Positions 14,784-19,109 of a DNA stretch of 64,000 nt are shown here, in pieces. The stretch spans positions 271,856 to 335,855 of the forward strand of contig CAZRVK010000001.1 in assembly GCA_964603585.1 (NCBI GenBank), in the 5' to 3' direction. The DNA comes from an uncultured Planctomycetales bacterium. GTDB lineage: Bacteria > Omnitrophota > Gorgyraeia > Gygaellales > Profunditerraquicolaceae. Position 1 is the first letter of the stretch; each line of letters starts with the position of its first letter. The notes under the pieces were generated by a model. The model saw only the letters and a list, made by a program, of their open reading frames with translations. It did not search any database and was not told the DNA's origin. The translations under genes were made by a program, and so were the position numbers.

Positions 14784-15158
14784 TTATCGCTTATTTAACA
14801 AATCATCCATTTTTAAAAGCAGAGCCGCCGGCTCAAAAGGCTTGGTAATATACGCATCCGCCCCCACCTGCTCACCGGTTTTCCGGTCAGATTCCTGAGC
14901 CCGGGCTGTAAACATAATAATAGGAATATGCCTGTATTTCTCATCGAATTTAAGCATACGGCACACTTTATAGCCATCGATCTTAGGCAGCATAACATCC
15001 AAAACAATTAAATCCGGCTTCTCGGTCCTGGCCTTATCCAGACCTGATTGTCCGTCACCAGCCACTATAACCTCATATCCGTTTGCCTCCAGGCGCAATT
15101 TCACCAACTCTACCAGATCACTTTCATCATCTACTATAAGAATCCGTTTTTTGGGCAT
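14784..15158 (-). CDS. Single-domain response regulator (CheY-like receiver)
   Basis: 124 aa with the motifs ILIVDDE, phospho-acceptor D in LDVMLP, and T/K. Confidence 0.85.
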   Translation of the reverse strand: MPKKRILIVDDESDLVELVKLRLEANGYEVIVAGDGQSGLDKARTEKPDLIVLDVMLPKIDGYKVCRMLKFDEKYRHIPIIMFTARAQESDRKTGEQVGADAYITKPFEPAALLLKMDDLLNKR

Positions 15159-15163
15159 CGCTC

Positions 15164-15574
15164 TTACTTCCCTCCGGTTTTTTTGCGCTGTTCTAAAATC
15201 TCCAGTAAAGTATTTACATTCTTTATCTCCTGCGAAAGGTCACCGGCTTTAAAAATGAAACCATTGGCATTTAGCCCCTTGGCAACCTTAAACCGTTCCT
15301 GGTTAAATTCATCTTCCGGAGAAAAAGCCGTGATCATAAAAACCGGGAAATCAGGATAATCCTTTCTTATCCTGCGCAATACCTCCAAACCATCCGGATC
15401 AGGCATGATAATATCCAGCAACGCTGCATCGAATTTCCGCGAAGACATCTTCTCTAAAGCCTCCTGTCCGCTTAATGCCGTAGTCACATCATACCCATTG
15501 ATCTCCAGGCGCAATTTCAAGAGCTCTAAAAAAGCTGGCTCGTCATCAACCAATAATATTTTCTTTTTATCCAC
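15164..15574 (-). CDS. Single-domain response regulator (CheY-like receiver)
   Basis: 136 aa with ILLVDDE..LLDIIMPD. Confidence 0.85.
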   Translation of the reverse strand: MDKKKILLVDDEPAFLELLKLRLEINGYDVTTALSGQEALEKMSSRKFDAALLDIIMPDPDGLEVLRRIRKDYPDFPVFMITAFSPEDEFNQERFKVAKGLNANGFIFKAGDLSQEIKNVNTLLEILEQRKKTGGK

Positions 15575-15575
15575 C

Positions 15576-18500
15576 TTACTCCCCTTTCTTTACTTTAACA
15601 ATAAGTTCCTGTGCGGATCTGGCCTCATCCGGATAAGTAGCGCAGATGAATCTCAAATGCACCCTTTCCTTAAGATTAAAAGAAGAAAAATACTCATCGA
15701 TCATCTGTTCGATCCTTCCTTCTATCCTCAAGGCGTTCTCCTTACCGCAATCGTTCAGAAAAATGGAATATTCCCCGGAATTATTAAGGGCAGTATCACC
15801 GGCCCCGCGCAATCCGCCTTTAATTACCCCTTCTAAATCCTTCAATAATCCCTGGATCTTATCCGGTTCAATCATCTGACTTAGCTTTTCCAGATCACGC
15901 ACCTTAATCACAATAATGGAAAAATTCGCATTATTATCATGGGCCTTTTTTATACCAGCTTCGGCATATTCTTTAACTAAAGTATCATAAGTATAAATTG
16001 GCAGGAGGAACTTGAAAGTTGTCCCTTGACCGTATAAACTTTCAACAGAGATCCTGCCTTTATGCATTTCAACGATCGCCTTGGCAATCACCAAACCAAG
16101 CCCCGTGCCTTTAGCTCCAGCTCCGGCCTGCCGGCCAAACTGTTGAAATTTATTGAATACCTTTGGCAAGTCACTCTCTGATATACCCAGACCGGAATCC
16201 CGGATAACACATTCCACATAAGAATCCCTCTCTATGAGAGAAACCTCAACAAACCCATTTTCTGTGAATTTAATGGCATTATCCAACAGATTGGTCACAA
16301 CCTGCATGATTTTGTCTGAATCGATATAAAGGACTATCTCTTTATCGCTGAATGCAGTCTTCAATTGCAAACCTTTTTCTTTTGCCTTGGCCTCAAACAA
16401 AGAAACTGCACGAGTGACCAGATTATTAATGACCACAGATTCCCTTCGGATATCAACCTTTCCGGCTTCTATCCGGGAAATATCCAAAAGGCCATTAATG
16501 ATCCTGGCTAACCGGTCAATATTATCCTGTGCAGAAACCAAGATCTTCTTTTGCTTTTCATTGATCGCTCCTGCCACCTCATCCAAAACAAGGCTTACCC
16601 CCTCCTTGGTAATAGAAAGCGGCGTCCTTAATTCATGAGAGACATTACTGATAAACTCATCTTTTATCTTTTCCAGTCTTTTGCGTTCAGTAATATCCCG
16701 TGCGATCATTGATGCTCCTGTAACATTGCCTTGGGAATCTTTGATCGCAGACACAGTAAGGGCAACATCGATGAGTAGACCCGCCTTGGTCAAATGCTGT
16801 GTTTCGTAATGACTGACACTTTCTCCATTACGGATCTTCTTGAGCAACTCCGGTACATCATTATCCATCTCTGCAGGTACAAGCAGTTCAAGGGACCTTC
16901 CTGTCATTTCCTCTGCCGAGTAGCCATACAATTTCTCAGCCCCCAGGTTCCAGCTTGAGATAATCCCATCCAGGTTATTGCCGATAATCGCATCATCGGA
17001 GAAATCCACGATTGCCGCAAGCTGTGCCCGTAGATCTTCTGCTTTTTTATGCAAAGAAATATCCTCCACAAAAATAAGGACTTTTTTCTCGCCTAACTCA
17101 TAAAAAGGCAATCCCGTAACATTTCTTGTAGTCTTTTTACCACCATAAAAAGAAGTGTATTCCAGTTTGCTTATAAAAAACGGAGTCCCCTCCAATGCCG
17201 CTTTGACCTTTCTGTCCATTCCAGAATTTTTATATGTAGAAAGCTCAAACACATTCAAGCTTATAAACTGTTCATAGGTATTCCCGGATATCTCCAGCAT
17301 AGCCGAATTCACATAATCAATATGGCCATGACTGTTAACTACAAAAATCCCAAAAGGCGCTTTTTCCAGGATTGAATGATTTAACTCATATGCCTTTTTG
17401 ATCTCCTCCTCTGTTTTCTTATGCCCGGCGATTTCATCCTTGAGTAATGCATTGGCCGCACTGATCTTTAACAGCATATCTTCGCGCAAGCTGATGAACA
17501 CATACGAAGACACTAACATTAAAGACAAAACAAGTAAAATAAGGATAGCGAACAGGCGGTAGTGTATAACCCTGTCTAAAGGACAGAAAAATACCACTGA
17601 CCATCCGCTATCGGTAATGAAATCACGCATCACGTAAAACTGTTGGCCAAGGTATGTTATCATATCCTGATCATTAACCTGGCCGGGCAATATCGCCGTG
17701 GACAAGTTATTCCCGAACTGCCTCGAATCAATCAACTTCCTTTTGGTCTCTCCATCAATAGGCCAGAGTGTATGAAAAAAAACGTCCCGGTCACTGCCTA
17801 AAAAAACCACTCCATGCGGATCGATCAGGAATAAATGCGGATACCCCTGAACATACTCTTCAAAATCATCGATATTCTTCTTGATCACCACTGCTCCGAC
17901 AATCTTGCCAAAAGGGTCTTTGACCGGATAACTGGCATAGTATCCCCGGTCTTGAGAGGTTACCCCTAATGCAAAATAACTTCCGGATTTCCCGGATATT
18001 GCCTGGCTATAATAAGGTCTGAATCCGTATTGCTGTCCAAGAAAACTTCTTAAGCCTTTTTCCTCTGAAGCAGCAACCGCTATGCCATTCATATCCAGTA
18101 AATAGCATACGGACATACCTAAAGACTTATTATACCTGTCTAAAACAGAATTAGCTCTTGCAATATCTTCAGGGGTAGATGAAATCAAAGCTGGAGCAAT
18201 CCAGGGGGAACCACTGATAGCAACTGCGACCTGGTCAACTTTTTGCATTTGATCCTTAAAATGCGTAAGCACAATGGAAATATTGACTTCCGCATCTTTT
18301 AAGCTTTTCTGTTTAGCGTAATCCCCTAAATAATCCGTAAACACCCAGCCTAAACCAAGGAAGGCAACAAAAATGATCACTATACCAAACGCGGATTTCA
18401 AATAACTATGGATCGGTAATTTTGTGCGGAATTTTTCTAAACGTAAAGCATGTAAATAATACCAGGAGAAAATTGCCATCGACAAGGCACACCCTCCCCT

Positions 18501-19109
18501 AAGTAATTGAACGGGAAAACCAAAACTTGATAAGAAAATATCATAATGAATAAGCTGGGCAGGATAAAAATCAGCCTTAGGCACAACCAGTCCGGCAGCC
18601 AGGGCATATACTCCCATAGACAGGCTCAAACCTAATAACCATTTTTTGAACGCACCGGATCTCTTAAAGGCAAATTTATATAAAGCCCAGGATGCAACTA
18701 TCCCGGATGAAAAACCAAAGGAATAACGTACCGTGACATTAAAAGCATTAATGCCCAAAAACGCCCCTAAGAACGCAAAGATGAAAAAAGGGATATACAC
18801 CCACAAGCCTACTGATTTTGAAGAAACAACAGATATACTGCGGCGGGCAAAATCAAAGAGAAAAATAAAAGAAACTGCTAAACAAAAGAGGCGTAATACC
18901 CTAAATACTTCCGTATCAGCTACGCTTACCGCAACTAAATCGAGCCATTCATTAATCCCATGCAAGACCCCGAACATCCCCAGCCACATCCAGGGAAACT
19001 TATTACCTTCTTCCCGGGCAAGAACAAAACAAACCCCGGAAAGGATCAAAAATGACAAACCGTAAAAAAAGAATATATAATCTATCTGCCCTTGAAATAT
19101 TTCAGCCAT
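15576..19109 (-). CDS. Multi-domain sensor histidine kinase: N-terminal 7-TM region, Cache-like extracytoplasmic domain, TM, two PAS domains, HisKA, HATPase_c, and a C-terminal degenerate GGDEF-like domain
   Basis: 1177 aa. H-box SHELRTPL, N/G boxes (NLLDNAIKFT, GTGLGLVIAK), PAS signatures. The C-terminal ~140 aa align to GGDEF with NSGEY in place of GGDEF. Confidence 0.85.
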   Translation of the reverse strand: MAEIFQGQIDYIFFFYGLSFLILSGVCFVLAREEGNKFPWMWLGMFGVLHGINEWLDLVAVSVADTEVFRVLRLFCLAVSFIFLFDFARRSISVVSSKSVGLWVYIPFFIFAFLGAFLGINAFNVTVRYSFGFSSGIVASWALYKFAFKRSGAFKKWLLGLSLSMGVYALAAGLVVPKADFYPAQLIHYDIFLSSFGFPVQLLRGGCALSMAIFSWYYLHALRLEKFRTKLPIHSYLKSAFGIVIIFVAFLGLGWVFTDYLGDYAKQKSLKDAEVNISIVLTHFKDQMQKVDQVAVAISGSPWIAPALISSTPEDIARANSVLDRYNKSLGMSVCYLLDMNGIAVAASEEKGLRSFLGQQYGFRPYYSQAISGKSGSYFALGVTSQDRGYYASYPVKDPFGKIVGAVVIKKNIDDFEEYVQGYPHLFLIDPHGVVFLGSDRDVFFHTLWPIDGETKRKLIDSRQFGNNLSTAILPGQVNDQDMITYLGQQFYVMRDFITDSGWSVVFFCPLDRVIHYRLFAILILLVLSLMLVSSYVFISLREDMLLKISAANALLKDEIAGHKKTEEEIKKAYELNHSILEKAPFGIFVVNSHGHIDYVNSAMLEISGNTYEQFISLNVFELSTYKNSGMDRKVKAALEGTPFFISKLEYTSFYGGKKTTRNVTGLPFYELGEKKVLIFVEDISLHKKAEDLRAQLAAIVDFSDDAIIGNNLDGIISSWNLGAEKLYGYSAEEMTGRSLELLVPAEMDNDVPELLKKIRNGESVSHYETQHLTKAGLLIDVALTVSAIKDSQGNVTGASMIARDITERKRLEKIKDEFISNVSHELRTPLSITKEGVSLVLDEVAGAINEKQKKILVSAQDNIDRLARIINGLLDISRIEAGKVDIRRESVVINNLVTRAVSLFEAKAKEKGLQLKTAFSDKEIVLYIDSDKIMQVVTNLLDNAIKFTENGFVEVSLIERDSYVECVIRDSGLGISESDLPKVFNKFQQFGRQAGAGAKGTGLGLVIAKAIVEMHKGRISVESLYGQGTTFKFLLPIYTYDTLVKEYAEAGIKKAHDNNANFSIIVIKVRDLEKLSQMIEPDKIQGLLKDLEGVIKGGLRGAGDTALNNSGEYSIFLNDCGKENALRIEGRIEQMIDEYFSSFNLKERVHLRFICATYPDEARSAQELIVKVKKGE

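Follow-up and report, generated by a model that had tools for sequence, protein, structure and literature searches.

A sensor histidine kinase with a truncated, predicted inactive GGDEF-like tail and two receiver-only proteins heads a pilus operon in an uncultured member of the Omnitrophota

How does an uncultured bacterium control the motor that assembles its surface filaments, and what part might a GGDEF-like domain play that seems unable to make a second messenger? The question is raised by a locus on contig CAZRVK010000001.1 (assembly GCA_964603585.1) of a bacterium that GTDB places in the Omnitrophota. We analysed 64,000 nucleotides of this contig (positions 271,856 to 335,855), hereafter called the window. 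On its minus strand a gene for a 1177 amino acid sensor histidine kinase (19109..15576, ATG start) is followed by genes for two receivers, REC1 (15574..15164, 136 amino acids, with a GTG start overlapping the kinase stop) and REC2 (15158..14784, 124 amino acids, after a gap of 5 nt), and, 27 nt further on, by the gene for a PilB/GspE-class assembly ATPase (14756..13077, 559 amino acids). A preliminary description of this DNA had reported two single-domain receivers and a giant kinase next to pilB and co-directional with it, and the open reading frames (ORFs) lie just so. The kinase ends in a degenerate GGDEF-like domain, which we call the tail (15576..15989, minus strand; kinase residues 1041-1177 plus the stop codon). 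On balance we favour the view that these proteins constitute a two-component module which acts on the pilus motor through receiver-only proteins, the tail being regulatory and possibly a binder of cyclic di-GMP (c-di-GMP).

Taken alone, the tail of the window falls short of recognition as a GGDEF domain. It scores 14.5 bits against Pfam GGDEF (PF00990) within the full protein and 20.2 bits when isolated, the gathering score being 23.8. Word-indexed homologue searches with the tail alone or with a tail profile returned nothing or almost nothing. The family came to light only when 1.84 billion cluster representatives were searched exhaustively with HMMER, the window tail and its closest relative serving as query: 731 clusters matched at E<=1e-3, and 209 of them reached E<=1e-10. 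When 54 of the homologous tails were compared with Pfam, 53 matched GGDEF (best 5e-15), and a profile of the 54 matched solved GGDEF domains in the PDB at E 8.5e-14 and PleD with an hhalign probability of 94%. An AlphaFold2 model based on the 54-sequence alignment reached a predicted local distance difference test (pLDDT) score of 95.4, and supersedes an earlier model from two sequences (pLDDT 73.6). Its top Foldseek matches in the PDB were all GGDEF domains (TMq 0.8-0.85, root mean square deviation 2-3 A). Because of these family matches, profile comparisons and the modelled fold, the tail appears to be a real, though divergent, GGDEF-fold domain. The proposal that the C-terminus aligns to a diguanylate cyclase fold, with NSGEY (1110-1114) opposite GGEEF, is borne out by the alignment, hhalign and the AlphaFold2 model. 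The comparison of the last 140 residues with GGDEF models and possible homologues gave a mixed result, in that the window tail itself remains sub-threshold but its relatives match and are numerous. Pfam GGDEF_2 (PF17853) was tried as the tail family and rejected, since only four of the 54 members matched it, and weakly; neither Pfam nor NCBIfam has a model of its own for the tail.

Among the best 150 of the 731 clusters, the median distance between the end of the tail match and the C-terminus is 2 residues, and in 134 of these 150 the tail lies within 140 residues past the G2 box of a kinase, most of the others being fragments. Where organism names were available for tail-family members, five out of five were metagenome-assembled genomes of Candidatus Omnitrophota, as were several of the best sensor-domain homologues. 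Related contigs range from 36 to 60% GC, and the more distant members may therefore be found outside this phylum.

For a comparison column by column, 138 tails were set against 25 canonical GGDEF domains and against PleD, whose sequence was first verified against the PDB. The signature GG[DE]EF is present in 0 of the 138. Its place is taken by [T/S]-G-E-[I/L/V] with a one-residue deletion, which in the window reads N-SGEY. The N-terminal DxLTGLxNR motif is absent throughout, and the positions of the Mg-binding Asp (DxD), of FK, of ND (the guanine-binding Asn/Asp) and of GHxxGD are replaced across the family. The tails also stop before the ALYxAKxxGRN helix, the bearer of K442 and R446 in PleD numbering. 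With all catalytic residues lost family-wide, the tail is predicted to be catalytically dead and unable to make c-di-GMP, in agreement with what had been proposed for the window protein.

GGDEF domains that bind c-di-GMP in the manner of PopA and SgmT carry an inhibitory site (I-site) comprising an RxxD motif five residues before the active site (A-site) and a secondary arginine, R390 in PleD. The best-conserved polar residues of the tail are R61 (86%), D65 (92%) and R92 (99%) in tail numbering, corresponding to R1101, D1105 and R1132 of the kinase, and they align with R359, D362 and R390, the inhibitory-site triad of PleD. The family consensus in this region is LRRxGD; the R/D/R triad is kept in 88% of the family and a strict RxxD in 58%. 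The window reads LRGAGD, that is RxxxD (R1101-G-A-G-D1105), with a one-residue insertion and a spacer one residue shorter. The preliminary description had asked whether an RxxD was retained: the strict motif is absent, but equivalents of the PleD triad are kept. Two further motifs, DCxKE (1120-1124) and ATYPDEA (1157-1163; family form G.ATYPD[DE]A), are specific to the tail and are without counterpart in nucleotide-binding GGDEF sites.

The remainder of the protein looks like a classical histidine kinase. Pfam locates HisKA at residues 816-883 (E 1.3e-14), with H825 as the phospho-accepting histidine, and HATPase_c at residues 930-1038 (E 8e-27); these are preceded by two PAS domains (residues ~578-615 and 696-811), as had been described. 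A motif search found every kinase box (H-box SHELRTPL at 824, N-box at 940, G1 at 971, F at 985 and G2 at 1001), and the motifs are intact. The N-terminal part consists of a multi-transmembrane region (residues ~1-258), an extracytoplasmic Cache-like domain (residues ~259-520) and a transmembrane helix (residues 521-539). Hydropathy analysis gave five clear hydrophobic segments before residue 258, a hydrophilic stretch of ~260 residues and the single helix, the weaker hydrophobic stretches being judged by eye. A multi-transmembrane region is thus present, but the seven helices first proposed are an approximate count; no Pfam or NCBIfam family covers this region. As for the Cache domain, the window protein gives weak matches to sCache_3 and Cache_WalK (E 0.013-0.047), but dCache_1 (PF02743) is present in homologues that share this part of the protein (best BLASTP segment 48% identical).

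This type of sensor is widespread, joined to kinase or to GGDEF/EAL outputs in a survey of homologues, and the sensor part differs among kinases that bear the tail. With 731 homologous clusters for the tail as well, the architecture is not, in this lineage, the rarity that it had first seemed to be. The exact kinase protein had no record in the assembly index, and a contig scan of species-representative genomes with the full kinase found generic kinase cores of unrelated phyla and no orthologue; comparisons of gene order were therefore drawn from metagenome contigs.

Each of the two small proteins contains one Response_reg domain (Pfam E 1.3e-23 for REC1 and 2.7e-29 for REC2), with no output domain in either. 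D10, D11, D54, T82 and K109 are invariant in both, and the acceptor residues are intact. Their best NCBIfam matches are to receiver domains of the PhoB/RpaB/YycF/PleD type. REC1 has an extended alpha4-beta5 region and K-A in place of K-P. A clear orthologue of it was found only in locus L040 (278 bits), with weaker REC1-like genes in L070, L050 and L072, and it is a lineage-specific extra receiver. Orthologues of REC2, at 150-197 bits, stand directly after tail-kinases in L001, L039, L041, L044, L054, L058, L064 and L070, which makes REC2 the conserved partner of this kinase lineage. Conservation of both receiver genes near pilB, one of the points on which the preliminary description hinged, is therefore seen for REC2 but not, beyond L040, for REC1.

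In all, 39 tail-kinase loci were recovered, and their ORFs were classified by phmmer with the window proteins as queries. The metagenome scan employed a smaller alignment with CATYPD[DE]A, so that the loci are biased towards members with this motif. Directly behind the tail-kinase lie one to six genes for single-domain receivers in 29 of the 32 loci that extend 300 bp or more downstream, or in 24 of 27 once near-duplicate contigs were collapsed. Seventeen loci are informative past the receivers, and PilB is the next gene in 9 of them (about 7 of 13 if only distinct loci are counted); where the contig is long enough (L039, L041 and L044) PilC, pilins, the TPR protein and PilM then follow. The gaps before PilB are -63 to +19 nt in at least seven distinct loci, whose tails are 35-45% identical to that of the window and whose GC content is 36-47%. 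One of the relatives, L040, is from an independent sample, is 92.5% identical to the window in DNA sequence and has the same order of kinase, REC1, REC2 and PilB. The idea that kinase and receivers form one unit heading the pilB operon is supported, and this order recurs in the independent relatives L039, L040, L041, L042, L044, L053 and L064. Linkage to pilB itself recurs in independent relatives, but in about half of the informative loci, and L001 has no pilus block.

The L001 locus is instructive, since its kinase (P0001) is the closest full-length homologue (48% identity in the best BLASTP segment, which covers 53% of the query, and 46% identity in the tail). The locus shares with the window the kinase and REC2 on one side and, on the other, ligA, a 167 amino acid ORF, a lactamase_B gene, an XerC-like recombinase gene (xerC) and a polyA polymerase gene. 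Between window positions 6300 and 14784 and L001 positions 4465 and 5525, REC1 and the 8-kb pilus block correspond to acylphosphatase and metallophosphatase genes. Because common flanks enclose different genes, the difference is a replacement and not a simple insertion. At L077 a REC2 orthologue (196 bits) comes after a sister kinase without the tail (region 7348-10221) and before CheR and CheW genes, so REC2 is not bound to the tail, nor is it bound to PilB. Since the sensor varies while tail and receivers stay, the invariant core is the kinase with its tail and the receiver-only genes. The pilus operon seems to be a frequent, not obligatory, partner of that core.

Could PilB itself be the point at which c-di-GMP enters? 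The window PilB matches Pfam T2SSE (8e-140) and has an MshEN N-domain (9e-21). The c-di-GMP-binding motif of MshEN consists of two tandem 24-residue RLGxx(L/V/I)(L/V/I)xxG(L/V/I)(L/V/I)xxxxLxxxLxxQ elements (PMC5013675). It was not found, in strict form or in those authors' relaxed form, in the window PilB or in five orthologues. A role for PilB as c-di-GMP sensor through this domain was therefore rejected, and any c-di-GMP input would need another receptor.

Other degenerate domains are precedents for such a receptor. SgmT, a hybrid histidine kinase of Myxococcus xanthus, has a degenerate GGDEF domain that binds c-di-GMP through the I-site and sequesters the kinase (PMC3509222). Like the window kinase it has at its C-terminus a GGDEF domain whose A-site is dead and that is without K442 and R446; the domain acts as a c-di-GMP receptor and not as an enzyme, in a pathway that affects type IV pilus-dependent behaviour. 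SgmT, however, is cytoplasmic, has a GAF sensor, a receiver between kinase and GGDEF, and a canonical RxxD, signals to the DNA-binding regulator DigR and is not encoded with pilB. Pfam detected no GAF domain in the window kinase, nor any receiver separating its HATPase_c domain from the tail, so that the four-domain order of SgmT is not reproduced: the tail directly follows the ATPase domain, is truncated, carries RxxxD and is succeeded by receiver-only genes. PopA and FimX likewise reuse an inactive GGDEF-fold domain as a regulatory or receptor module, and FimX links c-di-GMP to PilB, which it binds, the nucleotide being bound via a degenerate EAL domain (PMC5595344). PopA is a response regulator, though, FimX is not a kinase, and both keep the full-length GGDEF fold, unlike the window tail.

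For the receivers the closest parallels are in Xanthomonas, where EmvR acts as a PilB-binding repressor of that ATPase (PMC11973254) and DrdR binds both PilB and PilT and enhances their ATPase activity (PMC13507683). Like REC1 and REC2, neither has an output domain, and both alter the activity of a pilus ATPase by binding to it; EmvR receives its input from a classical histidine kinase (ColS), as proposed here for REC1 and REC2. They differ in being encoded by proteobacterial orphan genes away from pilB and the kinase, and in a kinase without a GGDEF-like domain. PilS-PilR resembles our locus in that a sensor kinase and a response regulator are encoded in a pil cluster, but PilR is an NtrC-type sigma-54 activator of pilin transcription, whereas REC1 and REC2 are without a DNA-binding or AAA+ domain.

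There are indications from sequence that c-di-GMP signalling exists among relatives of the window and is physically fused to kinases. In the other kinase at L077 (1084-3003), PAS, HisKA and HATPase_c domains are followed by a tail that is very degenerate (22 bits) and then by a canonical PilZ domain, in which RxxxR and DxSxxG are both present; c-di-GMP receptors are thus joined to kinases in this group. P0006, at L038, is a hybrid of kinase, tail and receiver, encoded beside a REC-EAL protein: directly after it come a CBS protein and several receiver proteins, one of them this REC-EAL. These facts speak to the group, not to binding of c-di-GMP by the tail itself.

We propose the following scheme. 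The multi-transmembrane/Cache and PAS domains would sense an external or a redox or ligand signal, and the HisKA/HATPase core, with its intact motifs, would autophosphorylate at H825. The phosphoryl group would pass to REC2 and also to REC1, as suggested by their conserved adjacency and intact acceptor residues; perhaps REC1 serves as a second output or as a phosphate sink. As the receivers have no output domain, the output must be a protein-protein contact, for which the PilB/PilC motor is the most likely target because of the conserved adjacency, the tight packing of the genes and the EmvR and DrdR precedents. By contacting the PilB ATPase or the PilB-PilC motor the receivers may tune filament assembly, a step suggested by analogy and synteny. 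The tail would be a regulatory appendage which gates, localises or scaffolds the kinase, most likely by binding c-di-GMP or a related nucleotide, because its best-conserved polar residues occupy inhibitory-site positions. The ligand step is the least certain one because the window protein has RxxxD rather than RxxD.

It is at this step that a serious rival arises, especially for the window protein with its missing RxxD. The tail may bind no nucleotide at all and be a remnant reused for dimerisation, localisation or receiver docking, its conserved motifs being kept for contacts or fold stability, and we think this quite possible. The window protein, like 42% of the family, has no strict RxxD, the one-residue insertion alters the geometry of the I-site, and nothing in nucleotide-binding GGDEF sites matches DCxKE or ATYPD[DE]A. 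The degenerate tail and separate PilZ domain at L077 suggest that a tail need not sense c-di-GMP, and receiver genes that nearly always come after the tail fit a docking function. Yet no polar residues of the family are better conserved than the equivalents of the PleD I-site, R92 reaching 99%, as selection for an I-site would give, and SgmT, PopA and similar degenerate GGDEF domains do bind c-di-GMP via that site. A more elaborate version of ligand binding is suggested by analogy with PleD, in which c-di-GMP cross-links GGDEF and REC domains: c-di-GMP or another dinucleotide at the modified I-site might cross-link or release receivers and so gate phosphotransfer into the 1-6 PilB-acting receivers. 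We regard this as decidedly unlikely; if true, it would be a hitherto undescribed way of driving type IV filaments, in which two-component signalling merges with that by c-di-GMP, and it would be characteristic of the Omnitrophota. That the tail is an active, divergent diguanylate cyclase is hinted at by its GGDEF fold, but we give the idea practically no credence, given NSGEY in place of GGDEF and the family-wide replacement or absence of the Mg-binding Asp, the guanine-binding Asn/Asp, GHxxGD, DxLTGLxNR and the K442/R446 helix.

A different doubt concerns the target. The kinase and receivers may be a general cassette that stands beside pilB by chance and is directed at chemosensory or envelope functions. 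This would agree with the same flanks without a pilus block in L001, with the receiver arrays that precede unrelated genes in L047, L057, L058 and L073, with the sequel to REC2 at L077, and with a sensor that varies while tail and receivers stay. PilB adjacency in at least seven distinct loci with tails 35-45% identical would be hard to keep by chance, however, and the packing is tight with no convincing terminator between REC2 and PilB in a terminator scan; we therefore hold a chance association to be rather unlikely. Highly improbable, in our opinion, is orthology of the receivers to PilG and PilH of the Pil-Chp system, the layout to which the preliminary description had likened the locus. 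In both cases there are two CheY-sized receivers, which in the window lie beside pilus genes and in Pil-Chp exert post-translational control of pilus extension and retraction, and the REC2 orthologue at L077 is near CheR and CheW. Pil-Chp, however, has a CheA-type kinase (ChpA), a methyl-accepting chemotaxis protein (MCP, PilJ), CheW and CheR/CheB, whereas the window kinase is a transmembrane sensor of the HisKA/HATPase_c type. The CheA, MCP, CheW and CheB families were unmatched by the ~35 window ORFs scanned with Pfam, the receivers resemble the PhoB/RpaB/YycF/PleD type, and receiver number varies from 1 to 6 among relatives. What survives of the comparison is a conventional histidine kinase in place of a CheA/MCP system, and the likeness to PilG/PilH as an analogy only.

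Several facts nonetheless weigh against a two-component module acting on the pilus motor with a ligand-binding tail. In roughly half of the informative loci the receiver array is not followed by PilB. L001 keeps the tail and REC2 but has acylphosphatase and metallophosphatase genes where the window has its pilus block; L058 has three receivers followed by genes that resemble, on inspection of their sequences, murI and queuosine biosynthesis genes; and at L077 the tail-less kinase and REC2 orthologue are followed by CheR, CheW and CheW. The strict RxxD is wanting in the window tail, and the kinase activity of SgmT in vitro is unaffected by c-di-GMP (PMC3509222). The Pfam scan of ~35 window ORFs disclosed no cyclase, phosphodiesterase, PilT or secretin family, and the comparisons all rest on metagenomic contigs, of which many are short.

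The operon downstream of REC2 is that of a type IV filament system. PilB passes the NCBIfam cut-off for GspE (TIGR02533, 637.7 against 630) and lies below that for PilB (TIGR02538, 628.6 against 675.7); it just passes NF053729, the NCBIfam motif model for the MshEN-type domain (38.5, cut-off 38). The PilC/GspF platform protein (13064..11856, minus strand, as are the genes that follow; 402 amino acids) matches Pfam T2SSF at 1e-56, its NCBIfam GspF and PilC matches being below their cut-offs. A T2SSG-like pseudopilin (11883..11470, 137 amino acids; Pfam T2SSG 2.5e-5) and a pilin with the canonical N-methylation motif G|FTLIEL (11442..11041, 133 amino acids; Pfam N_methyl 2e-8) have orthologues in the same order in L039 and L041. 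The leader junction of the pseudopilin is atypical (...NKA|LTVFEL): position -1 is Ala and position +1 is Leu, while +5 remains Glu. As listed, with a GTG start, the gene shares 28 nt with pilC, and translation therefore probably begins at the internal Met. Next are a TPR protein (10929..9373, 518 amino acids; Pfam TPR), a PilM-like protein (9289..7700, 529 amino acids; Pfam PilM_2 1.8e-14, TIGR01175 pilM 7e-16) and two small ORFs with no family match (7703..7137 and 7140..6715; 188 and 141 amino acids), all of which also occur in L041 and L044. The PilM-like protein is unusually long, its PilM match spanning only residues ~24-344, and the small ORFs after it may be PilN/PilO analogues.

From the kinase down to the pilins the genes are co-directional, with intergenic gaps of <=27 nt. 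A terminator-like hairpin before ligA (6361-6338) marks the downstream boundary of the cluster, and a tRNA-Pro(CGG) gene (19400-19476, minus strand; ARAGORN, Rfam tRNA 65 bits), 290 nt upstream of the kinase start, the upstream one. Scans for promoters and terminators gave counts near the shuffled expectation and, this hairpin excepted, were not used for operon structure. A listed 82 amino acid ORF (19263..19511) is a translation artefact of the tRNA-Pro(CGG) gene.

Elsewhere in the window, two plus-strand genes diverge from the kinase: 19775-20893 encodes a 372 amino acid protein with two receiver domains and a C-terminal region of ~130 amino acids without a family match, and 20937-21368 a CBS-pair protein. 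These may share the kinase circuit, because CBS and receiver genes come after P0006 at L038. A 362 amino acid fusion of a receiver with a phosphoribosyltransferase (39067-40155, minus strand) is another possible target of the kinase. An FMN riboswitch (26252-26379, minus strand) scores 67.8 bits against a gathering score of 66.2, and the genes behind it (21389-26060) resemble riboflavin biosynthesis genes (ribBA, ribH, nusB and others) on inspection of their translations. A 448 amino acid ORF (36462-37808, minus strand) combines a Maf-like nucleotide pyrophosphatase domain (1-186) with peptidase M48 (249-428). Every 2-kb bin from 1 to 64000 has a negative GC skew (cumulative -5.7), and the minus strand carries almost every gene. 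The window thus belongs as a whole to a single replichore, and its gene-strand bias is strong.

The Omnitrophota are an abundant group of uncultured bacteria, often of very small size, in which surface filaments are likely to be central to attachment and possibly to contact with a host or prey. The present analysis defines a large unnamed family of kinases that end in a truncated, inactive GGDEF domain and are accompanied by receiver-only arrays, often at the head of a pilus operon. This family is large, uncharacterised and typical of a lineage rather than a singular oddity. Because the tail is inactive while some members carry cyclase-like labels, such as the cluster P0222, called 'diguanylate cyclase (GGDEF)-like' by JGI, members so labelled in public records should not be counted as c-di-GMP producers. 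After SgmT, the window kinase would be a second, architecturally different histidine kinase with a degenerate GGDEF domain, and its family's altered inhibitory site, RRxGD together with a conserved equivalent of R390, is of interest for ligand binding. The module gives a testable regulatory circuit for the filaments of an uncultured phylum.

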